From: Catajapyx aquilonaris
Taxonomy: Eukaryota
Direction of reading: 5' to 3'
NCBI GenBank assembly: GCA_000934665.2
Contig: JYFJ02001629.1
Coordinates: 1 to 64,000 of the forward strand
Length of the DNA: 64,000 bases
In this document: one piece after another, positions 5,001 to 64,000 of the stretch
Numbering within the stretch: the stretch's first letter is position 1
Layout: every line of letters starts with the position of its first letter
Program-made: the position numbers and the translations under genes
The notes under the pieces: generated by a model
Databases searched by the model: none
Seen by the model: only the letters and a program-made list of their open reading frames with translations
What the model was told of the DNA's origin: nothing

Positions 5001-5619
5001 TGTGTTTTTTTTAAAGTTTTCCTCCATCAATCTCATTTGGACTTAACCACAATTATGTAAAGTACCAGGGGCATGCAAGCATGACCCAAGTCCACAAATG
5101 AACAATATTTTTATTTATTTATTTATTTACCCCAAGAATGAACCATATATATTCAGACATAAACTCTGATTTTTAAAATGTTTGGACTGACCTCAATGAC
5201 ACCGAAGAACTGTGATGAGTTCACCCCAAATTTGTACTTGGACTTTTTTTCTCTCCTTATTTTCCATACGATGTACTCACCTCTTCTGTACGTGATCGCT
5301 TGCCCAGGGGCCGAAGACGAGTAGGCGGTGTACGGGTAGCCTCCGTTTGGATTGACCGTGGTCGCGATTTGAGCCTGAGGCAACGCCAGTTGCTCCCTGT
5401 ACACGGGGTCGTACACTGCATGGTGTTGCGCCGGTACCTGCAGCAGGGCTCCATTCACCCTGGCCGCCTTGTGCCGGCTCTGCGGGTATCCCCATGTCAC
5501 CGACCCCATCCACACCACCAGCACGAGACACACCTATTGCGCAATTCATGAAGAGGGTTGTCGCAATCAGTGAAAGGCACAAGCCCAAGCGAAAGGAAAA
5601 AACTTACCTGCAACTTCAT
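2100..5619 (-). CDS. Cuticular protein, CPR family with RR-2 chitin-binding domain (291 aa, 5 exons)
   Basis: Exons 5619..5608 (MKLQ), 5533..5281, 3533..3334, 3163..2984, 2330..2100. All introns are GT-AG with consistent phases; total 876 nt. Signal peptide MKLQVCLVLVVWMGSVTWG. Rebers-Riddiford RR-2 motif PQYNFSFDVRDDEYTNYQNRQENRDGDIIKGSYSVVDSDGYVRTVTYTADPIHGFQAKVVREP. Ala/Pro/His/Val/Gln-rich flanks. Confidence 0.95.
4687..4790. repeat. Degenerate AT-rich tandem repeat (ACGAGAATAAAATTAATAA-like, about 3 copies) in cuticle gene intron 2
   Basis: ACGAGAATAAA recurs three times, separated by AT-rich spacers. Confidence 0.55.
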
Positions 5620-18600: not shown

Positions 18601-20166
18601 GGGCACTTTGACTATGCGAATTAGCTGTAAATAATTCTAAGAAATTGTAGAAGGGGTCGTGTTCATGACCGGCTGATAAATGTGCGCAGAGGTTAATTGT
18701 ATTTTCATATACAGCGGTATGGGCTCCACAAACAGATAAATATCTCAGCGAATGTGTCGCGCACTGAAAAAGTGACTACGCCCATCTTCCAACCTCCTTT
18801 CACTTCTGTATTTTTCGAGGAATGGGCATGACACAATCGGCGTATCTTCCGGTGCAAAAATTTCCCATCAATCATATTATGCATCTCTCCCCTCTTTCGG
18901 AAGTCAAGGGCTTCCCCCCACGAAAAAAAAGTCGGTCAAAGTCACCTCGAAACAAAAGGTGAAAAGACGCATGAAGTTTGCAAGTCACATCTTACAGTGC
19001 AAAAAAAAAGAAGCAATCTCGATTACCCAGAAGGAAGATGCATCACCTTCAAATGTTGCCCAAAAAATTGGTGACAATGCCAAGTCAGGTGGAAGATGGT
19101 GAAAGTGGTGCAATCGGATGACAAGTGTGTTCGTTGGATATTCCTACCAGGTCACTAATATTGGATAGTAGTTCATGGTCATCCCCACAGGCATCACAAT
19201 GTGGTCATCTCATCTTACACAAACTCAGATGCTGACCAGCGCAACTCGTGACCTCTTGACCCTCTTCGGAACAGTGTCAGCGGACATGCCAAGTAATATT
19301 AAATTGCCACCAACGCTCTACATTGTGATCTCTATTCTCTCTTGAATGTCATATACATGACCACTCCCATATAGCAAAAGAATAAAGAGAGTGAATAACT
19401 GAGGGGGCTGGACGCGACTACTAATGATTCGCAAGCAGAGTTTATCTTTAGCAAAACCGGTCAAGGTGGCGTGTGTCACTCCATAACGAGTCAGAAAGGT
19501 GCTGGTCGGTTCATGACCTTCCCGTTGTATGATCGGGGGGAAAAAATCACTTATTCAGATGCGATTATGACAAATGTCCGAGGATTTGACCCAACCAAAA
19601 GAAGGACACTCTTTTTATTGCCTCGTCTTGACCTCTGCTGTGGCGACGACGTCAATACGCAGCGGAGTTTAATCCTGAGCGAGGACACATTGCAATTTAT
19701 CCTCATTTGCATGAGATCATTATCGGCAAGTGACGGCCAGGGGTTAATCGCATAATCGTGTTGTGAATTAGAGGCGTTGCACCCTGGTAGCAGCCCTAAA
19801 CCAAGGCGCATTGGCCGTAATAATTACTTGCTCATGTATCGAAAGAGATTGGTCACATGCGCCATTCTGACGTCGGATCAACTCTCTCAATTCTGCACGA
19901 AATCACTTTAAATCCATCAGTTGAACAAAGGCCCAACTCCACAACTGTTCTGGCAATTGCGAAGTGTCGGCAGGGGGCTCTGCCCTTGGCTCTGCCAGTC
20001 CCCGCCATTGCGGTATCAAATATACGGTAATAAATACACGAACACACGTAGCTAGTGCGGTCCAAAAAGAGTCAATTAATTTGTGTCGGATAAAGAAAGG
20101 CGAGCATATATGCTCGGGGCATACATGTTTTTTTAAATGAGTAAAACATGGTGGAGTTGTGCCATG

Positions 20167-20641
20167 TGGGGTGAGATTGTGCCAGAGCATTTTTTGGGGC
20201 AACAGTGCGTCCTAAGGCGAATTTTACTCGTTATTTCCAACTTTGACTATCCCTCAATGTATACAGGGTGTTTCAGAACTTTTTTGTCCGAACAGTTATC
20301 GGAAAATTGCACGTAGCTGCTACTTTATAAGCAGTGACTTGCAACCGGTGATTTGTCGGAGGAATGGGGAATGGGGAAAAAGAGGGTCACACATCCCATG
20401 GCATGTGTGACCATCAGTTTTCAGTGAGCAGCACGTATGCCGCTTCAATCTCCGAAAAATCACCGTTTGCAAGTCACTGCTTACAAAGTAGCAGCTACGT
20501 GCAATTTTCCGGTAACTGTTAGGACAGAAAAGTTGAAACACCCTGTATAATAGTAAAACATGCCTATAAATTCGCTAGTTTACGCCTGCTGCCAGTAGGG
20601 CGCACTGTTGTCCAAAATTGCGTTGGCACAATCTCACCCCA
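20167..20641. mobile_element. MITE family B copy, interrupted by a nested Tc1/mariner-type MITE
   Basis: Ends TGGGGTGAGATTGTGCCA ... TGGCACAATCTCACCCCA. The internal sequence (GCCAGTAGGGCGCACTGTTGTCC etc.) is shared with the copy at 28701-28890. Confidence 0.75.
20264..20545. mobile_element. Tc1/mariner-type MITE, 282 bp, TA target-site duplication
   Basis: TA|CAGGGTGTTTCA ... TGAAACACCCTG|TA. Long imperfect inverted arms of about 95 bp (GGAAAATTGCACGTAGCTGCTACTTT / AAAGTAGCAGCTACGTGCAATTTTCC). Confidence 0.9.
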
Positions 20642-21158
20642 CCAGGTATAATCTCATCACGTTTGCGGGGTATGTTCATTAAATTATTTTATAGATATTT
20701 GCCACCTGTTCTGTCCAAGTTACGTGTGTGCCAAAAATGCTGGTAGTAGGCCTACATGAATGGTTCTGTGCGAGCCAGCTGGCTTTTCCAACCCTCCGAC
20801 ACGACACTTGCCATCATGAAAGGGAGGGGGGGCTGGGGGGGGGGGGGTACCCTTCTCATCAAGCCTGATTACTGACCATCCAAGCCCTGGCTGGCAACAC
20901 TAAGGGGAAAGAAGCAGCCAGTCCCAGGGCGCCGCCATTTAGTTGGCTGGCCTGCAACTCGGGCACATCTCTCTGACTGCGGCAGGGTCCCCACTTGAAA
21001 CAATCCTCCTCTTGTGCGCGATCAAGCGGATCACCCCCTGGGGGACAATTTGTTTCGTCTCGATGTGCTTATAGTCGAGAGGAAGAGGGCAACTCGTGTG
21101 CCGGCCATGCGCCTGTGGTGATGCGGTACCGGACACACCACCACACAAGACCCCCGCC

Positions 21159-24100
21159 ATGGCCGTCCTCCATCTGAGGCCGCCCATCTTCCTCCTCAGG
21201 CTATTGCTGGTCACCGGACTCGTTTGGGGGCTGCCCGGAGGAGAACCAGGAAGAAGCTGCCTCCGGAGATGTCACCGGATACTCGTAAGTTCAGCAAGCC
21301 CGGAAATGGCTGGTTGTACCACCTCTAGAAAACATATCCGACTGAAAAAGAGACAGAAAAGTTGAGTGATTTTTTTTTTTTTAAAGACAGTCAATGATGA
21401 TAGAATCAGGAATTCAGAGAGGTTGGCTAACTTTAATCGGGCAGTTTAATCTGCTGACATCACCAGAGAAATTATGATTTAGACGCCAGCCTATAAAGTT
21501 AGACTATTTCTCTGATTTCGTCATTCACTTGCATAGAATGAATGCTCCATATTTTAGAAAGAGCCTTGACAATATTTGTAGTTACTCAAGCAGATGACTT
21601 CATTTATTTTCTGTGTTATTACATGCTAACATCTGCATAGTACTTGTGTCTTTTTGCTAAAACACTCCCAAATCGGCGATATTTTTGAAAACCATAATGA
21701 CGTCAATAGCTTTTGTGCAAGGAAACATTTTGCATCCCATCAGAAGGTCTGAATAATTGTTCTTCTTCTTCTTTCTGATTGGATGTGGTAATTTTTCTAC
21801 GCACTTTGCTTACATTCTTTCTCCACGTGCTCTACGTATATACTTTATCCGACCTTGGAAGATTCGGACACGGTTGGTGTCTTGGGACGTGTACTCATCA
21901 GACACCTACCGCCATTGTTGTGCTGTTAAAGCGCAATTCACGTGGGCTAGAGTAGCGGCTTTTTGAGTGACCTCACTCATTTCTTCTGTTGATTAAAACG
22001 AGAGTAATAACTGCAGGCGTCCATCAGAATGATGGCCTCTTCTAGTTGAAGGCCTTCTTGTGATGTAATAGCTGGTCACATGATACAATCCCGCCAATCA
22101 GGAGCAGCCTCTCCTAAGCACAGCCTGATTGGATGGTTTGGATCACATGACTGCAGGGGTGCCAATGTAACAAGTAAGAAGGCAGTGTGTCAATGATACA
22201 TGACAATCATTTGTACCTTCAAAGACGATAATTACAGCCACATGATGTCCTTTTTAATACTAAAAGAGCTGTCAGGCAATTACACAAACGGCACTGACTT
22301 CAAGGGAAAAATTTGCATGACCCTATACGAATGAATTACATGGAAGCTGAGTCAGTACCCCAACGTCTGTGTCCATTAAAGTGTTGCCATCCATCCCTGC
22401 CACACAAATTCCATTATCCGCAACCCAAGCCCAACTCCCCCACACACACATATGTAATATACTGTGTGTGTATATACACATGCTTACTAACCCCTACGCA
22501 CACTTTTATAAACTCGGGGTTGGGGTCAACCATTTCTAACGAGCTCCCTTGATTCGTGTATCGCACTCGTACTTTTTGAAAGGTTAAGACATGTCAACAG
22601 ATCCGTTGTATCTCTCAGGAACCGCTGGGTTCAGGAGGAAAAAAAAAATAATAGAGAGAGGAAGAGAGACCAGGGACGAGGGTCACACAAGAAACAGGAC
22701 GCTTCTTATTGGTGGGGAGGAGGAAATCCGCCAAAATTTGGCCACGTTGACACATGACCCCAGCCAGTCTCCCCACAGTCAAATGTTACCAAACTTCTTT
22801 CCAACAACTGTTCCTTGATGTTTCCTGTCGCCTCAATTTTTGTCCTCCAAATTTGCTGGGCCACAAAAAGGGGTTTTAAGGCCGCACAAAAATTGAGTGT
22901 GACTAATAGCTCATAGCACGTGCTATTTGAGTTACAATTATTTTTTTTCTTTCATCCCACTAGTCAGTTCCACCGCCCAATGTAATGAGGAAGCCATTTC
23001 ATAGCTTCCCTTCATCCAATTCCAACTTTGATTCTGGTATAAAGCAGCTCCGGCTCAATTCCGATCCCAATTATTCAGCAATGTCTGCACACCGATTAAA
23101 GCAAAACCGGAACATTCCGGCATGTTCCGGTCCACTTCTTCAAGATGGCAACCATTTTGTCATATTATATCCTTTTTTTATTTTTATTTTCCTTTTCCGA
23201 GAGACTCTGAGGGCCCTCCCTTAGCCAAGTGTAGCAGCAGGCAGCGCTCGCCGCCGGCCTTAATTGCTCTTAATAAGGAAATGGTCCATCCGCGGGAGGA
23301 TGGATAGGATAGGAGGATGGATAGGGATGGGTTGGAGGAGAACTTTCGCTGGAAGAGTGGGGGAAAAAGTACGTTGAGAGGAGGAAGAGATCCGTACTTT
23401 TTTTTTATTCTTTTCAGGGACATAGCTGCTGGGTATCACTGAAGGTTGCTGAACCTGTTGGAGATGTATCGGGACAGATTGATTTGTGATGACATGCTGT
23501 GGGGTGTCGTATTTTTAAGGGTTGCCGGAAGAAGCTTAACGGCGCAATGACAATGATGGGGGGTGTAATTTTCTATAGGATTTGACAAGGTCGAGCTGGC
23601 TGCTTGAATATTCAGATCGTCATATTATTCGAGACGTCTTCAGAATTAATGAGGCAATACCGTTCTTTCTTGGTAAATGATTCATGAAGTGCATACCAAT
23701 TTGTTTTTAAAAAAACGAATACATTTTAAAATCTGGAGCAATTACCTAGCTTTAAACTTCAATTTCAACTGACATAAACACTCTTTAATTGCGCTTCAGC
23801 TTTAATACACAAAAATGTGGGCCAAGTGCAGTACAACCACTCAATTTCGAAACCAAGGTGAAGGGCCCCCCCTTTCCAACTCACGCTACTAACACACTGT
23901 CAGACTTGCAAAAAAAAAATAGTGAAGCGAAAAAGATGCAAACTTCATTCATTGTGAGGGCCAATTGAAGTAGGGGAGAACAGCAGTGGATTTTCCCACC
24001 GTGTTTCAGTCCACCTGTTACACGTTATGCTCCAGTGCATGGGAACGTCCGACCGAGCAGAACATCGCAAACGGTGTCCAATCGGGACTACCAGATATTA

Positions 24101-27100
24101 TCATCGCAATTTTCAGCGTATAATCCATCCAATCAATCGATGTGTTCATAGACTGGCCAGTGTGCTATAAAGTTGATATCCAGAAACAGGATGTATGTGT
24201 TTTTTTTGGGGTGTATATTCTAACGTTGGATTCTAGTGTGCGTGACGTGGGAAGTCGGGTGTGTCCACAGTCATTTTTTTAAGGACGGTGTGTGTACGGG
24301 TATTCTGAAAAAGACCCCTTCTCCGGAAGTTATGTCCCGACGTGGCGGAAGCGATGTTCAAAAAGCACTGCGGGGTCAAAAAGTTACCGGAACTGATACA
24401 TTGATTTTAGAGGGCCAGGATGGAGGGAAAGAGGGGGGGAACCTTAATTGGGTTTTCTTTCCACACAACAATGCAGCCGTTAGTGAATTGTTCAAGTAGC
24501 AACATTTGGCTAAAGATGCATTTAAAATATTGTTTGATTGGGAAGGAGCCAAACAAACTGTGGGTATCTGGCTTGTTTTTAGAGAAAAATATTGAAATAT
24601 GGAACACCCTGGATTATTTGGAGGTTGAATATTGCAATATTCTTGAGTGGACAATATTTTATGACTCTTGCAGAAAATGGGATTGATTAGCTCGTCATTA
24701 GCAGACAAACATAAAATTTCACTATGTACTTTCAGAAGCCATCAGCAACTGAAATAATAGGCTAACGTCGTGTCGAATACAATGTATACTAAGAAATCCC
24801 ACGATTATTAAGTAATTATTAGGTGAAATTCAGTATATAGTTTGACAAACTACTACAGGACAGTTCGCAATTACATACTTTCCCGATAGAAAGCAGCCCA
24901 TAAAACCGTGCATAAAAAGTGTCTAGAACAACACAACTGCAATATAAAACGCATTAACAATTACAATGCACGCAAACAATTGCTTCCCCATCCACACATC
25001 ATGCAGTCCTATTTTCACTCACTGATTTCAACAACCTCTTGTAGAAAAAAATAACAGCGCAAGTGAAACCCAACCCTTCATACGATTTAACACTAGAAAA
25101 TGAGCTTTGATCGAGATGATCCACATGTTTAGAGAGCGATACAAAAAGAAGGGTCTGACTAGGAAATGATAATCGGATGAAGGAAATGCCTTAGGAAGTT
25201 CCCCTCCAGTTAACAATTTTGGCAGATGTCCACCCTTGCTATTTTTTTTTGCGATTTTTTTGGGGGAGGTAGGGGGACCATCCCCATATGCATGGTGATT
25301 GGCGATGAGTGACAGTAGCTTGTTGGTGCTCGATGCTCATGCACGTGTGAGGAAACATTTAATAATTTCATTATTCGTCTCACCCCCCCTCCCCTCCTTG
25401 CCCTTCTCCTGCCAACAATTAAGCGCAATTAATTAGCACTATTTTGCACGCTATTCGTGACCAGCCTCGTTTCGAAGCGCCGTCTTCGGTGGACATGCAA
25501 ACCCGAGAGTCCGAATGGTTTCATCTAGATGGCAGTGGAGTCCTTAGCTCGTATTTCAAAACTTGGTTAGGCGCCAATTGGACAAAGTAATGTACGGAGC
25601 AATTATGCAATTAGAGTTGTGTGGAAGGTTGCTCCCGCGTCCTACTATTTGTCTAATGAGCTGTTATAAAAAGTTTATACCACTGCCAATTACATCGTTG
25701 TTGTCCTGTAAATGCTCACACACTCATTACGCCTTCAGGGTGGGATTGTAAAATGACCTGCTCTTATATGGAGCTGCTTCTGAAGGAATGCGAGTCAGGT
25801 TTTCCCAAGCTTTGCAATGTACATGGTGTTTTCGGATGGTCCAAAAAAAATATGGAAAAAGCAAGGGTCGAAATATTCGGATGCGCACTCCAAACTGAGC
25901 CTTGGAGTGCAAACTTTGCACTCTTGCTTTTTAAATATGGCTTAAACCACTAATTAAAAATTGAAGCCCTCCGAGTAAGTAATAAATTTGCACTCCATAT
26001 GAAAAGTCTGTGCAAACTTTTCACCTGGACAAAAATGTTAAGATTCGACCCTCGGAAAAGTCGTCCAGTGCATGTCACTGCTTGGCCTTTTGGGAGGTTA
26101 AAAATTGTGCCAATGTCCGACACAATGATGGTCTAATTCCTTTAATAACAGCATAATAATCCACCTCTAACTATTGCAAATTGACCGTTATAATCGCATG
26201 CAGCGCTGTACTAAAATAATTAGTGATGTTTAATTATTATTTTTTTGGAACGCTTTCTTATAGTGCATCATTGTCTCCAACCGATCCTTAAGATCTTATC
26301 TCCTTTAAGTCGTCCAAGTCTGGTCCAGCACTTTGCCAATAAGTCTATTGTCCAGCAGTGCCAATCAAGAGAGGCGAAGACGCGGCTGTGCAGATTTCCG
26401 TCCACTCACACCTATCAAGACTCGATTGGCTCTCATGGGCACACAAATAGTCCTCAGCTCTTTGATCGGGACCTCCAGAAAAGGTGCACAGCTCAAGTTG
26501 TTTACTCCAGCAACCAAAATCTGTGGGCTTCACCTGGTTCGAACCCTCTATAATTTGTTCCGGAAAACGGATGTTTTTATACAGAAAATCTTTCGACTAG
26601 GGTAAATCTCTGAACAAAAACAAACTCCGGAAAATTGTTACCTCCTGTCCTATACCCCTGCCCTCCCCTCTTTTGCTTGCTGTCAACTACAAGATCCATT
26701 GAGTGTAATGGCGGTTCGTTAGGGTCAATTTCCATCTAGGCATCATCCATCCATCTATCCCGTCTGTTCACGTGACGACCTCGCTTTCGCATTTGCCAAC
26801 CCCCCCTCTTTTTGTGCCGTTATAACAAGAATAGTATGTGTTCCGGGGCGGGGGATATCCGGGGATATACCACAACAGGAAAAAGAAGACGCCCATTTAG
26901 ACATCCTCCCCTAAGCATGCATGTCGCCATAAAAAGTGGGCACATCACTGCGAGGTACAGATTTCAACTGAAAAATTATTGTGGGCAAAATCAATAGACC
27001 GAATAATTCAAAAATATTGCAAGAAATCATGCGCCTATTTTTTATAAATATTTTGATCTAAAGGACCATTTTGGCAAAAACGAGTTCCAATAATTTAATT

Positions 27101-30100
27101 TTCATATTACTTTAATTATAATAAAATCAACCAGCGTATTAAAAAAAAACACTGACAGTACATCAGTCGACTGCTATTGCAAAAAACAAATTGGTCAATT
27201 AGGCAACAATACGGATTGGATTGTTACAAGCTTACACAGTCACTTGGCGCAACAATCCTGCTGTCACCACTCGCATAATCAGAATAAGCCCTACCTAAAA
27301 ACATAACGGGCCGGTTAATCAAAACGAACTTCTAATTAGGCCTGCAAAATGATAGCTGCAACAATCCGGCTACCCCCAAAAACGTCCGGGCTAATTCGTG
27401 GAAAAGCTCATAAAACTACGGGGCCGGCTCAACCAATCGGTCCTGGATAAACAATGGGCTATAAATCAATCCGGTTTTTTGTTTTGGAAAAAGAACATGG
27501 TTGTAAAACCGACTATTTTTAATTCATCGCTTCGTATATGATTCACACAGTTGAATAGAAAGTTACAGACCAACAAGCTGCTATTTTCAGCTGATTGTTT
27601 GGCCACCCTGTACTGTGAATAAGCAAATTTGGATATAACTTGTGGAACACCCTGTAAACCGGAATCCCAGGGTCCGGAAGATGTAGTGTCCGATGCGAAT
27701 GGTCAGTTCTCACCACTGGACACACGATTTATGAGGTCCAATTGTCTCCGCGGGGAATCCCCTTCCCCCTCTCCTAACCGCGCTATAAATTGACCGCCTT
27801 TGGATTCACACGCCAAAAGGAGTGGTCTGGAGGAGGAGGGGGAGGGTTGGAAAGGGGTCAGAGGTCATCAGTTGTCGCAACCCACCAAGGCACAAATAAC
27901 CTAGCACAACAGAATGCGTGGCCATGGCCTTCAGCCCTTATGCTGCATAAATTGGTGTGATGCCAAGTAGGGTTGCGCACGATAGAAGAATCTACTTGAG
28001 GCCATCGTCTTCTGACTATTGCAAAAAAAAAGCAACAACTGTGACCAATCATGCTGAGAGTGCAGGTTACAACATTGACAATGTGTCTGAAACACTGTTT
28101 CAAAATCAACTGTTGGCATTTTTTCTATGGCGAAGGTATTTTTTTTCTAGGCCTGCGGATTGTGATGATGTAGGCAGTATTATCGCTTCGTACTTGGCCA
28201 GTCATGATCCCATGGATCAAATAACCATGCTCAAATCAAAGGCATATGTTGACCTGGCTGTATCAACAATCCCCAAGCGACAGTTTGGATCTGGACGATA
28301 AAACCTTCTTTTTTTTCCCCCTAACGAGCTCCATCCATCAGAGGTGACAGATCAGAATCGAACCCTGGAGTCCCCAAGAAGAAAGGCGGCGACAATCTCA
28401 ACCCCGCAGCATCGGGAAAGACTAATGGTCGACTGCGGGAAAAAGAAGCGACTCGAAAAATGTTGGACGCAAATAGCTGCACAAAAGAAACTGTAACCAT
28501 CCAGCCTTTTTCGGTCGACACGCGCCCAAAGATGAGGCGCTGAGAACTGGGAAGTCCTCAATCTCACTCACTCCAGCAACCTCCCTAGCAAAAAAATAGG
28601 CAATTCGTCGCATGTCATCAACACTCTCCTCTCTAGAGAGCCATTCACAAATCGGAGCCTCAAAAATAAAGCTTCAATCATTACAGTGTGTTGATAGGGT
28701 GTCAATTGGGGTGAAATTGTGCCAGATGGTGTGAGATTGTGCCAGCGCATTTCTTAGACATCAGTGCGCTCTACCGGGAATTTTATTCGTAATTGTCAAC
28801 CGTGACCGTACCCCCAATGTGGTTCGTTTGATGCCAGTAGGGCGCACTGTTGTCCTAAAAATGCGCTGGCACAATCTCACCCCATTTGACGGGTATGTCA
28901 GGAGATAGAAGTGTCGTAGAGTGTATTATCATTACTGTGAGTCTATGTATAGAACAGGTGGGTTGGAATGACGCGGCGGAATAGATCGTGACAAATTCGG
29001 TTGCTTTTGAACAATAGAAACGATGCATTCATCAAGTAGTTTCCGATTGAAAGAGACACGGTGGGGGTGAGTTGTCAATAGTGTCAATCATGTAATTGAT
29101 TCGAAGGGGGACAGAACTGAGGGGAACTGTGGGTTGAGGTAGGTTTATGCCACCTGATTCACATTAAAGGTGTTAAAATATTGTGATTCATCAGGTAACA
29201 GTAATTGCCACCCTCTACATACAGTATGTCCCTTGGCAGCAGCGGAACTCGGGTGGTTTCGGTCGAGTGCTCCAAGCTGTTGGTTGGCTGGTTGGTTGTG
29301 CTGGTGGGGGATGGGGAGGGTTGGAAGAAGAAGAAGAGAGTTGGAGAAAAAAAAAAAATGCTGTCATGATCAGTTGGCGGGACAGGCAGGGAGGGACTGG
29401 TCATGGCTGCCCTCAGCTCAGGACCACGTGTTGGTCACTGGCGAAAATGGCCGTGGGTGTCGGAGGAGGAGGACATTCCGACACTCTAATGAAGATTGAT
29501 TTCCACGCCTTCTTGTAGTTTGCCTACCTCACTATATAGTTTAAGAACTGGAGTGTATAGTGTTGTGTGTGTGCGTGTTAACCAAGCATGCTCCTGTGGG
29601 TCATGCTGCTTCTGGCACACCCTGTGGCGGCCGGTGATGTTCAAGGAGAGTGCATCGAGATATGTCCCCTGCAGGTGAGGAGGTCGACCACGTGCCGGGT
29701 GTCAACATGCTGGGGTCAACAACACATATATAGACTAATACAAAAAAAGAGAGTGGTCGGCATGTAAATTACGAGTGACAGGCCGTCGGGGATGGGCTGT
29801 CAAAACAAGGTTGATCGATATAAATGTCACTGGTTACGAAATTTTGGTGACGCATTTTGGGAAAGAAACTTAAAGGTCGAGTGAAGTTGCGGAATTGGCA
29901 ATAATTTTAATTCAAACTGTACGTGTTAGGAAAATGGACAGACGAGGAGTATTCATTTAAACTGATTTAAATTGGGTTCACATATTCATGGAAAGTTGTT
30001 GGTTCAAAAATATTTTAAGCGTCTCTTTCTCTCTGGTGTAGGATCATATTATATCTCATCCGTAGCATTTTTTGGTGTAGCTGCAGAAGCTCATTACAAC

Positions 30101-33100
30101 GATAACCCTCGACGCACTTTGGCCTCTTCCACGACGGGGGTGAGTGTCGTCGCGAGATACGCTCCAATTTGGAGGACATTTTTTGACGAAGCTCAATTGC
30201 CACCATTAATTTCGGTTCTTTGCTATACGATCACTGGTTGTTGTTGGTTTTTTCCGTCGTGATTCTCCGTCGGAAAATGGCTCACAGGTTAGAAGAGCAA
30301 CAGGTGCGTGACCATACCAACGACAACACAAAAAGAGGCGTCCTTTTTTAGGAACGTCGCAGGAAATTACATGAATGAAAGTTCTCCCCCCCACCAACCG
30401 TGCCTTTCATAGAAAACGATGCTCAGATCTGACCTCGGTTTGGCATTTCACAACACAATTGCGAGCCTAAATTATTCTACAGTAGAAATTATTCAGCCCG
30501 ACTTATCTGTAAATATTCTGGGCCATAGATCAATTTGATTTTATCTAGAGGTGGCTCAAGTAATTGCTTTTGTTTAATAAGTCAAAACTGAAGTGTTTGT
30601 TGACGATATTTTGGCACCAGTTATTAATTTATCAGAATATTAACTGAATATATTAGGATGATTTGACACAGCACTTCATCCCCTGAATTTGCATAATGAA
30701 TTGTACAGCTTAGAAATTGAGAATGACCCATATTGACCTCGGATGGCATTGGGTTGAACCCATATTTTATTCGGAAAAGCCAGACCCCCCATGCAGTGGC
30801 TGGATCCGTCCATTATATCTCCCAAATCTACGTAATATGCAGCTCTATTCATAAGCTATAAAAGCAACTAGCTTTTAATAAATAATTGTTAAAATAAGTA
30901 AAAATTAAACTATTGTCATAAAGCAGGATAGTACTTAATAACAAGCACAATTGTAAAAAAAATTGCTAACTAATATGTGCTTCAATTGGAACATAGTGAA
31001 GTAAAACTCTTCCTTACAACGATGGGAAAATAATGGGCTATTTAAAGTAGGTTAGCCACATTATTTATAGAGTGTCCACAGCATTTTCTTTTAGATCGTG
31101 TGTATTTTCAAGGATGGGTTCGGGATGTTGTCCTGACAGGCCGCAGTATACAATTTGGAATCTCACTAAATCCAGGAGACGCTGTTAGTAGGCAGAAAAG
31201 CCCCAAATCTTCTCTCTCCGGGGTGTCCTCAACCCCCTTAGCTGGGATGAGGGGGGAACAGAAACCCCCATTGAAAAAGGGGCAGAGATACACAGTTGAG
31301 CCCTCCGAAAATTTCCCCAAGCACGTGGTCAGTGTACAACATCACAAATGAGTCCACATGTCCACCACTTAAACTTGTCTATATGATGGGGGAAAGGGGC
31401 TCATCAACTTTTTCTCAACTTATCTATAGAAGTATACCCACCCTCCTTTTGGGGTTTTTTTGAGGGTGGAGGACCCCCCCTCTCATTTTATCTCTATGGG
31501 TGACACACGATCCGGGTTCCTCTCTCGACCCGAAACTGCCGAGGTCCTCTATGTGTTTTACGGGCAGATACTCTTTCAAAGAAAGCTAGTTTGGGGGGAT
31601 CCGAAGAGCGTGTCGTAAACCGCCAATAAAAAAAAAGTGCATTCCTAACTTTGGTACAAATTTTGACTGTATCCTCCTATTTTGAACCTGTTCGGCCTAT
31701 TTTTGGGGAAGAAAAGTTTTACTAAACTATTGGAAGACAGAAAATGGTGGCAATAAACCAGATTTATATCGGAAGCATTGCCTTTGTTACCATTGAATTT
31801 TAAGGCCTTAATATCGGTATTAGGGGTTTGAATACTAGTATTACTATGGTTTTTGAAGGGAATAAAATAATGTTTCAAGTCTTAGGGCCGGTTTCACCGA
31901 GCTCAGTATATGATAAAACCAGGGTATTTCTCAAAATCCCTATCTATTTGTATGAATTTTCCTAAAGAAACCTGGTTTTATCATATACCAAGCTCGGTGA
32001 AACCGGCCCTTAAAACTGGGAAATAAATAGCAGTTTTCCCTGAAAAGTGTGCCATTTTAAGTGAAGAAAGAGGCGGCAAAAATACAGAAAATAGTTATTC
32101 AGATAGTCAAGTAATACCATTTATTCCAGCTTTACCCTTTTTTTGAAAAATATGTACTCCATACACATGACACAAGGGATAGCAATCCAATTTTTAAGTA
32201 CAATTTTAAATTAAACTTTTTTATCGACTCAGCCCCACAGCAGCCCCAATTTTAAGCAAGAACTGTGTGTGCTCATGAAATTTCCGATATGCAATCAGTG
32301 CCAATGAAATTAAAGTAAAAGTAATTTAGAATGCAGAAAAATTACATTATAAGCGGTATAAAATATTATTCAGATTCATTTGAAAGTCCGAAGTTTTATG
32401 CCTCATTTTCATGTCACATTAATTTAGACTTCCATAAACTTTCAACTGGCACAAAGTTTCACTGCATATATTGATAACAAGTCGAACCATTTTTAGGTCA
32501 CTAACTGATAGCGTCGTCGGAAAAGGTTAAGGTCATTCTCTTCCCCCCAGCTTTCCTTCTATGCAAGTCAAAGACAGTGCGACGCCACAACTTCACCTAC
32601 TGTACTTAAGCTACATCCTCCGAAACATGCCGGGCCATTTCCTAATTACCCTCAATTCTGCAAGGTTACACATTCTGAGACACAAGAAGAGGAGGCCCCA
32701 CACTCTTTTTTTTCTTCCTTTTATCCCTCGAAGATATCAAGGAAGATACACCACGGGCAGGGGGGAACACAAGCGTTTCTTTCAACGCGTCTAATTCAAG
32801 TTGCCGAAAGAGGAAAAGAAGTGGGTGCGCCTCAGACGTGTTAATCGCATAGGAACCCCCTCCGTTTCTTAAAGAAAAAAAATAACTGACCAGGAAGAAA
32901 AAAATCAACCTATAAAACACTCGAGATCAGAGTGGAATTTATCCCCTGCTTTCTTGCCTCTGAAAAAAAATATAGGTTCAACAACTGGTGTTGAAATTTC
33001 AACTGGGGGGGACTTGAAAAGTGAAATCTTGTTATGTTCTGAGCTTTAAGAGGACGATGACTGAGAAGCCCTGTGTTCTTGCCTCCCTATTATGCACAGC

Positions 33101-36100
33101 CAGATATGATTTATTTTAATTAAGGGGCAGCCAGCAAGTAGTTATAAGAGCTCCCCTTTTTTAAAGGTTCCGTCAAAGGGGGGGTTGAAGAATTAATAAG
33201 AATAATGAAGTTAAAGAGTAAAGCAGACGCCGAGAGAAAATTCGAGTATGGGAACATCAAGTAACTTTAATTTTGCGGCCCTGCACTCATCATATGTAAT
33301 GTTTTGTGTTTTTTTTAATGAAAATTTCAGCCAGAGTTTTGTTGGACGTCTCCTGCTCACACTTCGAATATAATTTTTAAACCATTTAAGTGTGTAACAT
33401 CACTTCAGCTCGACACGCTCAAGTACGTGCTCTGATGTTTAAAAAAATTCCTGGCTAACCCATTAATCAATTTTCTCACGCGAGTTTAGTCCCAAAAATA
33501 TGTGGCCCACTACCCCCTCTTCGAAACCCTACACCCACCCTGCAGCACCCTTGTCAATTTCAAGAGGTTCTTGAAAATCCGAATTACCCAACAGCACGTG
33601 CAATAAATAAACGAAGACGTTGACCTATAAACAGCAGGGGTCTTCAAAAAGAGTCAATCGAGTCCAATGTGACCTTTTGAAGGAGACTTCTTTAAAAAGA
33701 ATGCTCGCCAGGTGTGTCGACATGAATGGGCAGTAAGCGTCACATCTGCCTTATGGCGTAAGAAAGGTTTTCCAACTGACACGAAAGGAAGCTCTTCGTA
33801 TCCTGTACTTTTCCCGCCAACACTTTTTTTTCTTTCTTAGAAAAGAACAGGTCACCTTATTTCGTTAAGGGAATATTTATTTCCGAGTCTGGAAAAGAGC
33901 TCATGAGTATAGTTTTTGGGAGGAGGCATTCGTCTCCATGTCACCTTGCGAAGGGACGTTTTTCTTGATGACTTTTCCACTGGGAAAAGTGGGAAAAGCC
34001 TGAGAGGAGGGCGAGAACTAATAACTAAACAGAAAATGAGGGGGAAAAAATGAGCTGAGAAGAAACTAGAAAAAAAATGTGTGGGGGTTTCTAACAAATT
34101 ATATTTTTGTTTCTTTTACAGAACCGAACTGAAGGAACAGACTTCGACGTGAGGTGCAACAATTCCTGCAAAATTGAACAGGTGAGTTTCCTTTGCTTGC
34201 CATATGCTCGATCCACGTGGGGTTCCTTTTTGTTGTGGTCTAAAGAAGAGAGCCCGCCTTCCGTTCTTTCTTTGGCCCACTTCCTTCCTTTTTCCCCTAA
34301 CTTCCTTTTAACGCTTCTCGACACAGCTGACCTCTCAAAAAATAATTTGGGCATATTTGGGGCCACTTGCGCAACGCCGTACCTAACATGCAAAATATTC
34401 CAACAGATGCGTACATACACTCGGAAAATATTTACGTCATTATATTCTTACCACGTAGTAGCTGATGACCTTTTTGCTTAATGACGACGACTTCAAAATT
34501 AATCCTTGATCTTTGCTGCTAAGTGATTTGGATAAACACAACTTTTGCAGTCTGTGCCAAATATTTTTTTGCTGAACATCTCTGCAGACACTTCGTATCA
34601 AATGATAATTTTTGTAATTTGCATTAGTATATGCAGATTCTATGTCGCACCTGGTAATTACCCTGCATGACATAGCATTCTGTACGTGCCTACAAGATAG
34701 TCATCCCTTCCGACCGAAAAAAACGCGACTAGCAACGGATGTGATTTCAGGTCGCTTCCGTTCACCGTCACGATGATGCTTCACGCTCACCTGAGCCCCA
34801 TCTTCTGTACCTCATTTTCTATAAACATGCACTGTACATACATGCTCTATAGAACTGGTTGCTCTAGAAGCGGGCCATATTTTTTTTTTACCAGAGCAAA
34901 AGAGATGTGGTAAAAAAAAGTGAGCCTGATATGTTCCCCAGCAACTGGGTGCAGAGGAAATGAGGGTCAGAAAAGAGGGACCTCCACCCTTAGGTCCCTG
35001 TGATTGGAAACAATACCCATTTCAGAGGGTGAAGGGGAAAGAAGGGCTTGGGGTTGATGAGCTATTCTCTGCTGGATCCATTCTGAAATTATTATTACAT
35101 GGGACCGTGTATTCAATTATGTGGATGAGGGTCACACTGTGGAAATATGGTTTAAAGTGTGTGTAATTGACATATTATGTTGCACTAAACAGGGGATGAT
35201 AAGCCCACAGGTTTATACGAAAACAATAAATTAGTCACGCGTATAATATAATGTAGTTCAATGCATTGCAAGTGGTTTCCAAGTTAGTGAGCTAAAAAAA
35301 TGACTTTGAAATGTCTTCCTGAAAAGTCTATTTGGCCTATGAACTTATTTTTTTACTGCTATTTTAGCTTTCGGCAATATGTCATGAGAGGGATTACTGA
35401 TACGTTTCAAAACAATATTACGTACTCCTAACCCGATAATGTATCAGCCGACAATGTGTAATCAGCAATAGAAGTCGGCGCCACATAACATGAAGTGTCA
35501 CGAACCTGCTGGAAGTGATTTCATATATTTCAATCTGTGCTGATCGCAGAGACGCAGACTTTATTTTTAACATATGTCGCTAGCTCTTCATATCATTTTT
35601 TATACATAGCACAGCACAGAGAATCCACGCATTAAATTATAAAAATTAAATATTAAACGTAAAGTAATTATCAGGAGGGCCGCATTCCTGCAGGGGGAAA
35701 AAAATAGTTCTCAAGGAAGTAAACACGAGAGGTATGTACGACTGGCAGACAGGTGCAGTACCACACCTGGCTGGACAGTTTGCGTGACTGTCCGAACAGT
35801 TGCTGGAATCGTAAAAAAAAGTAGAAAATATGAGGCCTCTCCCTTCCTGTCGACTCGCACAAACATGACCCTGAGAAAATACAGAAGGAACCTTCATTTC
35901 ATTTGTAAGGTTTTCCCCCCGCCTCAAAGAATATTTAGACGTGATTTCGTTCGTAAAAGGTTAGGTTCTGAATTGCTGTGGTGCTGCTGCACGTGGATGA
36001 CAGAAACACGATCAGTCTCAATTGCGGAAACATTATTTGATACTCCAGACACGAACAATGTAGAATATTTGTTGCAGCACACTCAACATGTGGGTAGAAT

Positions 36101-39100
36101 TTCATACCCTCGAATATTGAAAAGCATTTATGGTCCAAATGATGATTGACAGCGACCTGAATACTTGAAAGTACTTAACACAGTTTCTTCAAAACAAGTT
36201 CAGGACAATTGAACGTGCACAATGAAAGTGATACATTTGCCGAGGAAAATAATATCCACGTGAAAAAGATTATTGTAATAATAAACTGTACTGTTTTATA
36301 CAGTAAACAATAACGAATTGACAAACAAAATTAATATGACAGAAAATAACATGTAACAAATTGTGTAAATAAAATTCAAATATAAAATTTAGAAATGTGG
36401 AATTTACGCCCACATATTTGAACCAAAAGATAGTTTCAGCTTAATTGGTAGGCTCAATTTCAGATTATGTTTCTCAATTACAACTATCACTTTTATGTGA
36501 AGGCTTTTTTTTGCCCTCCTGAAATTATCAAATATTTTTTTTCTTCTTCTTCTTCACCCAGGCCCTTAATTTATTAATTTTTCTCTTCCCCTTTCCCACT
36601 GTTGGTCCGTTCAATCTCAGCGGATAAGAAGCATCCATCTTGCACTGGTTTCATCTGTCATTTTTTTGCGTGATTGATGACACTAAAAAACGGGTCATCT
36701 CTAGCCCGAATTTGTTGTAAACAGGATAACCCACAACATTATACATATATTTTTTTCCCTCTCCTTCTCTCTGCGGCCTAGCCCGCGCAATGTTTTTGAT
36801 GGACATCAACCTTTGTGCCTTGGTTCTTGGCACATACAAAGTAGCACACACCATGATGGTCATCAAGCTCGAAAGGGGGGGGGGGATACTCTTCTCGAAT
36901 TTCTGTTGGTGCCCCTGCCTACAAGATAGGTTTTGAAAAATTCTTCAACTTTTCTCCCCCTCCTTCTTTTTTCCATGGCAATTTGGGCTCCCTTGGCCTC
37001 ATCGACCCCTCCTTCAAGTGTGGAAAGGAACGGACAACCCGCAGTATACATTATGCTTGTTTAGAACTGGGCGACCATCTAAACACTTTCTAGTTAAGAA
37101 AACGTCTCCGGCCAGACCTCCCAACTGGACACACACTGGAATTTTTCACAGTAACAATCGCAATTTATGTCCCAGCAGAGGAAATGTGGACGAAACTCAG
37201 TTTTGATCGCGGAATCATATATGACAAACTGGGCCTCCAAAAAAAACGATGTTTCGTGGGCGTCAGATCATCTAAAATAATCGTCATATTTATCATGGGT
37301 CCTGGTCCGGGTCCCATGAGAAGAGGCGATGATGGCCCTCAGCTTGGGGGAGAGCCCTCGACTGGGGGTTATTTACCTTCCCCAATGGATTGGATCATTC
37401 CCTCCCAAACTCTGGATCCCATCAACGTCAACCAAGCTATTTTATCTGGTATCCATCTTTACTGGACAGATGACCTGTATGGGACTTTGAAAGTGTATAC
37501 AGTATCCACAGCATATAACTTCTCAAAAACTAGGCGTGGGAAGGATTTCTTATGGACCCCACTGTACCCATGGGTACAGTGGGGTCCATAAGAAATCCTC
37601 TTTTGAAACCCTACCGTTGCAATATTTATGACGCGATTTTTGGGGGGGGGGAGAAGTTAGGTGGATAATTATTCAAGTTCAATTTTAATTACTTTTAATT
37701 AATTATTTAATTTAAGTTTCCTTTGCAAACCATTCATGCAAAGGAATCGCTTGAATTTATATTTAGTTTGAAAATATTATCGCAGATGACAATTACCACA
37801 ACTTGTTACTAGTAATGAGACCAAATTGTGGCCCGTCAAGACTGTTGCGAGATTTTTCCAAAATTATTTAAAAATAAATAAATTAAAATTAAATTTTAAA
37901 TAAACAAAAATCTAGCCATTAATAATGCATTTTAATAACTATGGGGCGTAAGTTATTTTAAGTATTAGATCAATTATTATTTTAAAATATTTTCTACGCC
38001 ATTATCACAATTTTCCCCCTAAATTTTCAAATTTCGTTGCCATGGTAACCAAACCAGGACAAGCAAACAAACAAACAGAAACAAACTTGGCCTTTTATAA
38101 TAGACCCCATAGAGATGGGGGTGTGATGGACATGGACAGTGCACCACACACTATTACAGGAGGACCCAGTGACAGTGATTTTGAGAGTTGTCCCCCCCAC
38201 ACTTTTCACTCATTTTCTGACGCCATATTTTTTTCCCCCTCCTCCTCACAGTGTACGAGGGGATGTCAGTTATGGAAGGAATCCCTGGAGTCCAGCTGTC
38301 AAGATGTCTGCGTGAGTATATGCCACGCACTGTTAAGGAGAGACTATTTGGCGACAGTCATCAGTCAACCATTATTGCCACTTTTTTTCAGAACGGGATC
38401 CAGGAGGTGCTGCCGGAAGACGAGATCTACTGCATGATGGGCTGCAACTTTGCGGTCAACTCGTACATCCAGCAGCTCAAAGGTGATTACGTAATGTATG
38501 ATAATAATATACAGAAAAAAAAGTAGAGCCTTATTTTCGATGCAAGTCTCGTTCGCGACTCGGGTTAAGTGAAATGGCCCCCGGAGATAGCATGTGTTTT
38601 TCAACCTAAGTCTCATGATAACAAAGCTGTGAAAACAATTTGTTTGCGTAGTGCAAGTCCTGTTGTTGTCATTGCACTGGTTACAACAATCCTTCATTTT
38701 GTACTGTACACCATATTGCACACCATTTTTGTGGGTTGACACATTATTGCATAGCACCGTCCATATATAACTCTCAGGTTCAAAGAGAACATCCCGGTAG
38801 ATCCCGATGTGTAGGCACGAGTGTAGTGCGCATGCGCGGGTAGTATATACTAGAGTGTGCGCATGCGCGACTGGAGAGACTAATCCATATCTTTTTCCCT
38901 CCATTTTTCTTTCTCCTTAGACGAGATAGGCACCCCTCCTCCTCCAGCCCTGGTGGCCGATTCTCTGACCAACGTGTCCCTGAGCCTGGAATGGGGAGGG
39001 TCACACCATTCCAACGTGGCTTACCTGCTCCAGTGGAGATACGCCTCTCTGCCAGGAACATGGCAGTACTTTGCTGACCAAGTTCCGAAGCACAACACGA

Positions 39101-42100
39101 CCAAATTCATCGACTGCCTCCGTCCATACACCAAATATATTGTAAATTCTTGTCTCTTTCTAACTAGAGTGAGGCTTATTAAATATGGCGAAATTTCAGT
39201 TCCGAGTGGCATGGCTCCTGGCGCCTGATAGAGAGCCTCTGATGTCTCGTCCGAGTGTGGTCATCAGCACAATGGCTTATGGGCCTCCATCCGCGCCGCC
39301 TGCGCTGACCACGGTAGCCGCAGTGGACGCAACGAGAGTCTCAGTTGCCTGGACGCCATCTCCGTTCCCAAACGGACCTGTCCTCTCATATGTGCTACAA
39401 ATCAGGGAGCTTCCAGCTGGATACTCAACAGTCAAGGTTTGTCACAATGACACACACCAGATGAATGATCTCTTCAAATGTTGCACTTTTCCTAAGCATA
39501 CGGCTGTCCGAAACATTTTATGCGTGCAGTATGTAATCTTGATTATTTTCACAGGATGTGCCAGCCTCGGAAGAAAACTTGTTCTACCTCTTCAGCGGAC
39601 TAAAACCGGGTACAAACTACAGCGTCTCAGTCGCGACTAGAAACAGCGCCGGAGAGGGACCTGCAGACGTCCGGGTCGTAACTACTCCTCCTCACATGGA
39701 AGGTAATTTTTTCTCCAACATTTTGGTACACCAAAGTGCAGTTTAAAGGTCTTGTTAACGGCCAGTTAAAATTGTTGGTTAAAACCAGGCACAATCCTAA
39801 CCGAACTTTCTTTCAGCCGTGAAGGATTCCCTGGAGCCCCATTTGATCCTGGGAGCTAGGCAAACCATAATTCGTCAGGGGCTGGACCTCTTCGAAGGTC
39901 TAAGCGTGATTTATAACAGCACAAGGGAAATCACAGGTTAGAAGCTTTAGAAGTGGGAGGAGACTGCTAATAGGCTGATTAACTACTCTTTTTTTTAAAT
40001 TGTAATTACGCAGGCGTGGCCGTACATGTCAGTAAGAAGTTACTCTTCGTGTCCGATTCGGCCGGATACATCATCATCAGCACATTGGGAGGTCAGGAGC
40101 CTCCAACAACCCTGCTGACCCCTGCCCACATGGGTTTCTCACCATCAGCTCTATCAGTCGATTGGCTCAACAATCACCTTTACATTCTGGGCAAGGTACA
40201 GTTCAAACGAGTTCTTTCTGCTATTCTGCTATTTTCTGTTATTTCCGTTATTCTGCTATTTTCTGTTATTTCTGGCGTTCTGAAACGTTCTGGAAGGTTA
40301 GTTAATTGTTAAATGAAATGATTTTATACTTTTGGCAAGGTGGTGCATTCGTCCGGGTCGGTATGGCAGATATCGAGGTGCTATTTCGACGGGAAGGGTT
40401 TGACTAATGTGATGCCTCGTCTGCCGAAGAAGCCGTTGCACTTCGAGGTGGATCCGTTCAATGGGAACCTGTACTGGGTACTGGTGGGGGTACCGAATGG
40501 AGGTTTGTACAAGCTGGACCTGGCAGACGTCGCGACTGAAAGGAAGAATCGGGAGGTACAACCGGAGCTGATACTGGAGGACCACGAGTTGGGGGCGTTC
40601 GCAGTGGATCACATGAACTTCAGGCTGCTCGTGTCGCACCAGACGCAGAACACGGTCATCTCTGTTTCGCTGGACGGAAGCGACGTGATGGACATCAGGG
40701 ACAACACACAGCAGCCCCGGTTCCAGAAAGTACTCTCGATGGTCACCTACAACGGACTGTTCTACTGGACCAACGGCCAGGAGGTGATCGGCGAAGAGTA
40801 CTTCCCACAGCAGGACAGCTACTTCCACAACAGCTATCCGTACCTGTCCTCCGACAAGCCCTTCAACAGCATCAGTCTGTTCCATCCCGATGCACAGCCG
40901 GTACCGATGCCAGTCAATGCGCCTAGGGGTGTACAGGCCATCTTCAGCAGCGAAGTGGCGAAGGTCAGTGGAAAGTGGACCTGGTCTAGACCGGGACCAG
41001 TTGTAAACCGAAACTTTTTGACAGGTGATGTGGAAGCCTCCTCAGCTATTGGGCGGTATCGGCAAAGGAGCATGGCAGAACTGGCTGTACGAGATGCACA
41101 TAACGGAGGTGAACGTCAGTCGGATAATTTACAGCAGGGACATCAACACTACGTTGTACACGGTGCACAACCTGAAGGAGAATACCGAGTATGCCATCAA
41201 GGTGCTGGCCTACTCATCCGCCGGGAAGGGACCGTGGTCACCAGAGTTCAGAGGTCACACGCTCAAAGCCACGTCCGAAGGGAAGTACCCGGTGTTCCTC
41301 TGGAGCGCACACGACGGACTCTTGAAGACTGACATACTCGGAGACAACGTGGAGACACTCGTGCACAAAGTGGCATTGCAGGTACTGTACACTTTACGAT
41401 TTGCAAACTCCAGAAACTACATATTGGCAAAATTGAAGGACGGAAACGAGCGGTACCACATAATGGACATTACGTGGTACAAGGACGCTCTGTACCTGGT
41501 CCTGAACAACAGCCAGGTCGTGTACTTCAACATGACTTCCCGAAAGGCTGAGAAGATGGACGACATCGACTCGGCCGGAAGCATCGCTGTCGACTGGATC
41601 GGACACAAGCTGTACTGGTCAAGCCCAAAGCATCAACTGGTACGAAAAAGTGTTACCCAATCTTCATAAACTGTGGTACAGTACATTGCGATTTATCCAA
41701 TAGATAACTCGAGCCAACCTGAACGGTAGTTACCAAGAGCCGTTGCCGATAATAACAGTCGCTAGAGAACTGAATGTGGACGCTGTTTCTGCCAACATTT
41801 ACTGGTCAACCGGACATTCGGTGGAGTGTGCCAAGTTGCACGGAGGAGATCAGCAGGTTTATTACCAAGCTGGACTCTTCTCTGGAAAGCAAGGTGACAA
41901 AATAATTATTCAAGTCGTAATAATTCAGGATGGGATTTAGCACAGAATTAATTGCAGTTATGGGATTGACTTTGGACTCGTTGCAACAAGACATTTACTG
42001 GATGGTACGTAGCTACGAAGGTTCGGTCCTGTTTCGAGCACCGACTGTTCCAAAAGCTACTAAGAAACTGAGCGAGACTATTGAGGAAGTTAGCAACTTG

Positions 42101-63602: not shown

Positions 63603-64000
<398 letters not shown>

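Follow-up and report, generated by a model that had tools for sequence, protein, structure and literature searches.

Two candidate first exons with oppositely charged first helices in a ROS1/sevenless-type receptor gene of Catajapyx aquilonaris

The 64,000 nucleotides (nt) of Catajapyx aquilonaris contig JYFJ02001629.1 (GCA_000934665.2, positions 1 to 64,000 of the forward strand; the whole stretch analysed, here called the window) carry, on the plus strand from about 21 kilobases (kb) to about 50 kb, a gene for a receptor tyrosine kinase of the ROS1/sevenless type. The question raised by this locus is whether the receptor can begin in two ways. A first-pass annotation had proposed two mutually exclusive first exons, 1a and 1b, each encoding a signal peptide and the first CxxxC motif (two cysteines separated by three residues) in the receptor's cysteine-rich N-terminal domain. 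The three exons that bear on this question are as follows, with a slash marking a splice junction here and below.

21159-21284, plus strand: candidate exon 1a, 126 nt, 42 residues, donor CTC/GTAAGT, phase 0.
29588-29674, plus strand: exon 1b, 87 nt, 29 residues ending in ECIEICPLQ, donor CAG/GTGAGG, phase 0.
34122-34181, plus strand: common exon 2, 60 nt, 20 residues, starting with N-R-T and containing CNNSC, the second CxxxC; phase 0-0.

Both candidate first exons are present exactly as first described. In each, an ATG opens a hydrophobic leader that is followed by a CxxxC and then by a strong donor in phase 0, and the two starts are 8429 nt apart, which agrees with the 8.4 kb given before. 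With either exon the frame continues into exon 2, which itself starts in phase 0 behind a strong, shared acceptor (...ttttacag/AAC at 34122); this demonstrates no more than compatibility. Either exon would supply the first CxxxC of the cysteine-rich domain, and the opposite charges reported at first pass were also found, the segment from eight residues before the first cysteine to four after the second having a net charge of +3 in exon 1a and -3 in exon 1b. Because an in-frame TAA is located at 29579-29581, two codons ahead of the exon 1b ATG, exon 1b is usable only as a first coding exon and not as an internal one. By reading of the sequence, joining exon 1a to the AG at 29517-29518 would meet a TAG after six codons. 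Judged by heuristic only, with the (-3,-1) rule, the leader of exon 1a has a 14-residue uncharged run, a candidate cleavage site at VWG/LPGG and an arginine inside the leader, and that of exon 1b has a 10-residue run and a candidate site at VAA/GDVQ.

How often such an exon would be expected was determined with a composite search for open reading frames (ORFs) of 15-80 residues starting with ATG, having an uncharged run of at least 9 within the first 30 residues and a CxxxC located 2-5 residues before a phase-0 GTRAG donor. On both strands of the whole window, this search returned exons 1a and 1b only (two on the plus strand and none on the minus strand). When it was loosened, the plus strand held 761 ATG-to-GT phase-0 ORFs of 15-80 residues, 36 of them with a hydrophobic 9-mer and two with a CxxxC near the donor, which were again exons 1a and 1b; the corresponding numbers for the minus strand were 827, 65 and two, the last two being nested at one poor donor (GTTTTA). 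In 1000 first-order Markov simulations of 20000-34121, the mean number of qualifying ORFs was 0.001, or 0.117 if any GT was accepted as a donor. These criteria were framed after the data had been seen and the figures are therefore generous, although the margin is still large. The exon pair is more than chance.

Each of the two exons sits in a local peak of GC content, which counts in favour of the pair: it is 0.60 in the 400 nt around exon 1a (99.7th percentile of the 400-nt tiles of the window, the most GC-rich class), and the tile around exon 1b is at the 96.5th percentile. Low-complexity DNA was also observed near both candidate promoters: a G-run at 20826-20850 upstream of exon 1a, and a purine-rich GAA and poly-A tract at 29325-29360 upstream of exon 1b.

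The gene itself is, from its sequence, an arthropod orthologue of ROS1/sevenless, and this part of the first-pass interpretation stood. The closest full-length protein found was the Bacillus rossius redtenbacheri 'proto-oncogene tyrosine-protein kinase ROS isoform X2' (P0004), which was top of the 13 proteins compared (46.1% identity, 2420 aligned columns) and gave 21 high-scoring segment pairs (HSPs) by tblastn, in order, at 38246-48709, covering its residues 52-2305. The HSPs of the kinase region were 65-83% identical to the kinase of this protein, and Pfam PK_Tyr_Ser-Thr matched the kinase domain at 47161-47661 (E=1.2e-26). The ectodomain was collinear with annotated ROS/sevenless proteins, with the FN3 and YWTD units in order among the HSPs. 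The 208-residue exon at 40340-40963 was used as the query of a whole-library protein search (E<=0.001) and matched 264 proteins, and 20 representatives of these that were inspected carried only the labels ROS, ROS1-like, sevenless, tyrosine-kinase receptor, FN3-containing, or hypothetical/unnamed. The top identity was only 61%, in short fragments, which indicates that the same species or genus is not in that library. Among longer proteins, a large exon matched only P0001, a fragment without the N-terminus, and exon 5 matched only P0184, whose start falls within exon 4.

Exon 1b is, judged by its motif, the canonical and ancestral first exon, because together with exon 2 it gives the C-x3-C-P-x-Q/N-x-T of insect orthologues. 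Bacillus rossius ROS has CIRRCPLQ/NQT, with which exon 1b has CI..CPLQ/N.T in common. The N-termini of 35 library matches were inspected, 14 of which had, by reading, a hydrophobic leader followed by a CxxxC, and the pattern matched 10 of these 14. From the second cysteine to the next there are 14 residues with exon 1b and 15 with exon 1a, and 14-18 in the 10 matched orthologues. Codon usage was scored after training on 2339 downstream codons, a test of low power in which exons 2 and 3, although real, reach only 0.08 and -0.16. The score was frame-specific for exon 1b, at 0.305 compared to -0.015 and -0.379 for its two alternative frames, and 1.0% of the null windows free of stop codons scored as high. 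By pattern match only, a TATAWA is located at 29533-29538 (plus strand), 55 nt upstream of the exon 1b ATG, and an initiator-like (Inr-like) match was found at neither exon 1a nor exon 1b.

What the two exons would encode can be placed on the CATCH domain, the N-terminal domain of these receptors. In Drosophila Sevenless, the ectodomain is kept folded over by contacts that the CATCH domain makes with YWTD-B and FNIII-4 through F231, L232 and F235 of capping loop 1 and F279 of loop 2 (PMC11743138). Mammalian and chicken ROS1 share the domain (PMC13100127, PMC13044245), and the mammalian CATCH-FN1-FN2 arm is autoinhibitory (PMC13100127). The N-terminus of the Culex orthologue aligned weakly with Sevenless chain 9bfp_A (E=0.035) with the cysteines in register; its exon-1 CxxxC aligned with CVQRC of the chain, and the ...DLFLDEF... 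that comes immediately afterwards agrees with the residue spacing reported for loop 1 (PMC11743138). Hence, based on this alignment, capping loop 1 would be divided between exons 1 and 2, with its first three or four residues encoded by exon 1, after the signal peptide and helix 1, and the remainder by exon 2, ahead of the next helix that bears cysteines. Alignments to mammalian ROS1 chains begin downstream of helix 1, and a human ROS1 motif that the first-pass annotation had given was not confirmed. The CATCH region of the window gene has five CxxxC motifs, one from exon 1 (either copy), one from exon 2, two from exon 3 and one from exon 4, spaced as in the 10 matched orthologues, and no Pfam model matches it. 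A swap from exon 1b to exon 1a would turn helix 1 from acidic to basic, lose the conserved Pro-x-Gln and make the loop one residue longer, and we infer that this could affect the fold-over contact.

For exon 1a, evidence of common descent with exon 1b comes from 21106-21139 (plus strand), a stretch just upstream of the exon 1a ATG. It is similar to the opening 35 nt of exon 1b, counted from the start codon. The local alignment has a score of 31, with 26 of 35 columns identical and one 1-nt gap, and this score was reached by 1.3% of 2000 dinucleotide shuffles and by none of 774 other window tiles. The remnant supports an old duplication of the first exon, of which it would be a trace. C[IL]RRC is common to exon 1a and the ROS of Bacillus rossius, the closest orthologue. 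That the ATG, the open frame, the cysteine codons, the phase and the donor are all intact in spite of the old divergence argues for selection.

We put at about 0.5 the probability that exons 1a and 1b are alternative first exons of the ROS1/sevenless gene and that exon 1a is a working exon. If so, the first coding exon would exist in two copies, each with its own start codon and donor and each spliced to the same exon 2, with exon 1b as the ancestral copy and exon 1a as an old, remodelled duplicate. Each copy would encode a signal peptide, then CATCH helix 1, stapled by the CxxxC disulfide, and then the start of capping loop 1. Two promoters are presumed to drive the two exons. The distal promoter would give a receptor with a basic (+3) helix 1, without Pro-x-Gln and with the longer loop, and the proximal promoter would give the usual acidic (-3) receptor; one possible consequence would be an altered stability of the folded-over, autoinhibited ectodomain. 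The use of exon 1a, the two promoters and any functional difference are what we infer from this arrangement, as was already the case for the first-pass proposal that promoter choice would change the extreme N-terminus and might tune the receptor. The fullest form of this reading, in which a lineage-specific duplication has led to two receptors from two promoters that differ in helix 1 and the start of loop 1 only, with a self-ligating autoinhibitory fold-over of different strength or pH sensitivity across tissues, is speculative and, taken as a whole, rather improbable.

The explanation that competes best with a working exon 1a, and that we consider unlikely without being negligible, is that only exon 1b is used and that exon 1a is a relic of the old first-exon duplication, in which the CxxxC codons and the donor were kept and the frame is open and leucine-rich only because the DNA is GC- and CT-rich. 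Several observations point this way and weigh against a working exon. The stretch at 21106-21139 now reads ATG CGC CTG TGG TGA, a 4-codon upstream ORF, and is out of frame with the present exon 1a ORF; since the remnant is frameshifted, the present leader would not be inherited but a replacement, which also fits a decaying copy. The codon score of exon 1a (0.155) is not frame-specific, with 0.084 and 0.112 in the other frames and 0.224 in antisense, and 3.3% of null windows score as high; this score reflects GC richness only. Three ATGs (21063, 21107 and 21121) precede the exon 1a start, and by reading of the sequence a 19-codon ORF begins at the last of these and extends across the exon 1a ATG. 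Upstream of exon 1a, neither a TATA-like nor an Inr-like match was found. The charge of helix 1 ranges from -3 to +1 in the 10 matched orthologues, which leaves exon 1a, at +3, outside the range. The broken ancestral start, the upstream ATGs and the lack of codon bias would together argue for decay. Against this, the ATG, the 42 open codons, the 14-residue uncharged run, both cysteine codons, the phase and the GTAAGT donor are all intact, while the nucleotide similarity to exon 1b is almost gone. Retention of all of these features under neutral decay is unlikely, with only 0.001 such ORFs expected by chance in the simulation.

The lack of a parallel in annotated orthologues also favours a relic over a working exon. 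Isoform sets were compared in seven insect groups (28 sequences) and eight further groups (21 sequences: millipede, spiders, horseshoe crabs, crab, mite and two molluscs), and in none of them were two different first exons with leader and CxxxC found. Within a species, one first coding exon is common to all models in which the N-terminus is retained, and the remaining variants have an internal start at the M-G-C of the equivalent of exon 4. Variation of other kinds was found among the annotated models: Culex pipiens pallens isoform X3 (P0160) skips the exon-2 equivalent, and Scylla paramamosain isoform X2 (P0041) skips the exon-3 equivalent. Each of these skips of a 20-residue phase-0 CATCH exon removes one or two CxxxC helices and would leave an odd cysteine set.

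The one deviating start among the annotated models was in Onthophagus taurus, where an older ROS model (XP_022900026.1, P0179) has a different first segment that is weakly Kazal-like (Kazal_1 E=0.046, below cutoff). Compared with the current models (P0016 and others), this gives two predicted first segments with leader and cysteines and the same join point before N-H-T, as in the window. The older segment has been dropped from the four current isoforms, so that a wrongly joined neighbouring exon, and not a duplicate of helix 1, is the probable explanation.

Full-text literature on sevenless/ROS1 with an alternative first exon, alternative promoter or signal peptide contained no description of first-exon choice that we could find, in line with the first-pass remark that none was known. 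Where a 2026 Sevenless review deals with signal peptides, the passages concerned mention only the internally displaced one of dipterans. Neither the literature nor the annotated relatives gave a second example of such first-exon choice in ROS1/sevenless.

It is considerably less likely that exon 1a belongs to another transcript altogether, such as a small secreted-protein gene or a non-coding RNA, or is incidental to a promoter of a minus-strand gene resembling DuoxA (dual oxidase maturation factor) at the GC-rich island at about 21 kb. Consecutive portions of the DuoxA profile (positions 184-253, 133-180 and 64-128) are covered by three ORFs on the minus strand at 10819-12745. No exon for profile positions 1-63 was found among the minus-strand ORFs up to 21.4 kb (15 of at least 70 residues and 64 of 35-69 residues, 12.7-21.4 kb), and the 5' end could reach to about 21 kb. 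This gene may therefore have its 5' end, perhaps with its promoter, close to the GC-rich island in which exon 1a is located, and the antisense frame over exon 1a scores as well as the sense frame. On the other hand, the interval from 21.3 to 29.5 kb yielded no additional coding exon, the minus-strand ORF at 20942-21271 has no Pfam match, and the phase and the CxxxC position that fit exon 2 of the ROS1 gene would have to be a coincidence. None of the 44 ORFs of at least 70 residues at 20.9-34.1 kb reached a curated Pfam cutoff that would point to a rival gene, one sub-threshold match being to DUF2842 (17.4 bits compared to a cutoff of 25). A search with the 68-residue ORF of exon 1a, from ATG to stop, against proteins of similar length found no candidate sharing three words.

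A pure look-alike without common descent with exon 1b is very improbable. The search criteria were chosen post hoc, and long open frames arise on either strand in GC-rich DNA, as in the minus-strand ORF at 20939-21271 over exon 1a, but only 0.001 such exons are expected by simulation, none was found elsewhere in 128 kb of two strands, and the weak nucleotide similarity to exon 1b begins exactly at an ATG. Least probable of all is an assembly artefact, in which a collapsed or misjoined haplotype has placed a second 5' end upstream of the gene, as alleles or recent duplicates would be near-identical, while exons 1a and 1b and their flanks share almost no nucleotide similarity.

Two other candidates were rejected. 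The matches between 20-29 kb and 29-38 kb were all 26 nt or shorter, which rejected a recent segmental duplication, and the best match to a duplicate of exon 2 between exons 1a and 1b (26954-27016, E=0.15) holds stop codons.

Downstream of exon 2, the gene continues on the plus strand with the following features, in which HSPs refer to the Bacillus rossius protein.

38252-38311, plus strand: exon 3, 20 residues, CTRGC ... CQDVC, phase 0-0; HSP with residues 52-73.
38392-38482, plus strand: exon 4, carrying the fifth CxxxC (CMMGC) and ending in phase 1; HSP with residues 74-103.
38921-39141, plus strand: exon 5, first fibronectin type III domain; a contig of sequencing run X1 stops at 39141.
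39191-48709, plus strand: remaining coding exons, for the FN3 and YWTD ectodomain, the transmembrane region and the tyrosine kinase; HSPs up to residue 2305.
40340-40963, plus strand: large exon, followed by a 61-nt intron.
40964-41024, plus strand: the 61-nt intron, with GTCAGT...ACAG ends, dividing an apparent single ORF of 336 residues.

A search of sequencing runs listed no RNA run and only X1, which has 0.24 of the words and is of a kind that is not on record. One of its contigs departs from the genome at 40965, which is 40963 plus two ambiguous letters. The end of two contigs at predicted donors (39141 and 40965) suggests that the run is complementary DNA (cDNA), and supports these two downstream junction boundaries only. 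Over 21000-40999 its contigs are short, and the bins with exon 1a, exon 2 and exon 3 are without cover; the depth in the bin at 29004-29670 is tied to a loose end at 29357 in low-complexity DNA and is uninformative on exon 1b. Within the intron between exon 1b and exon 2, the depth was raised at 31880-32012 (bin mean 40, pieces up to 23), with small indels and a 41-nt skip, and this stretch is probably a dispersed repeat.

Signs of other genes were detected on either side. About 13 kb downstream of the ROS1 gene, an open-ended plus-strand ORF at 63603-63998 appears as the start of a gene resembling class-C G-protein-coupled receptors, with a leader and then the start of a ligand-binding region; its ANF_receptor match (E=5.5e-4) is below cutoff. 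The Sevenless ligand BOSS has been described as related to metabotropic glutamate receptors (PMC11743138), and the location of this gene next to the ROS1 gene may be a coincidence. Near the other end of the window, the minus strand carries a cuticle-protein exon at 2981-3214 (Chitin_bind_4, E=1.6e-16) and, close to it, a Pro/Tyr/Gly-rich ORF at 5153-5533, which together point to an arthropod genome.

The interest of the locus comes from the structures of the CATCH domain, which helps to keep the ROS1/Sevenless ectodomain folded over, a state that is autoinhibitory in mammals (PMC11743138, PMC13100127). If exon 1a is used, an isoform pair in which only helix 1 and the first capping-loop residues are swapped, with the charge reversed, would be a natural experiment on the fold-over mechanism, and would be the first case of promoter-dependent variation of the ligand-independent 'self-ligand' of ROS1. 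The mechanism itself, alternative first exons, is well known, and its use at helix 1 and loop 1 of CATCH, a structurally interesting spot, would be a new instance of it. If exon 1a is silent, the locus is an ordinary ROS1 gene with a decaying first-exon duplicate.

Among known systems, the clustered protocadherins and UGT1A have alternative first exons, each with a promoter, that encode the leader and the N-terminal part of the protein. In these systems, as proposed for the window, each variable 5' exon brings its own ATG and donor and joins shared downstream exons, so that promoter choice sets the N-terminus. The window differs in having two very small exons, each for a signal peptide and one helix and not a whole domain, and in that the use of the pair is putative.

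Among the orthologues, the Bacillus rossius redtenbacheri ROS isoforms X1-X4 (XP_063241343-9) have the same domain order as the window gene, with a leader, then C-x3-C-P-L-Q/N-x-T and further CxxxC helices. Canonical insect ROS1/sevenless genes differ from the window in having, among their annotated isoforms, no second, basic helix-1 exon upstream. In Drosophila Sevenless and vertebrate ROS1, the CATCH domain is made of disulfide-stapled helical hairpins at the extreme N-terminus, and exon 1 of the window gene, in either copy, aligns to helix 1. The CATCH papers (PMC11743138, PMC13100127, PMC13044245) present one N-terminus per species, whereas helix 1 is found here in two candidate versions.

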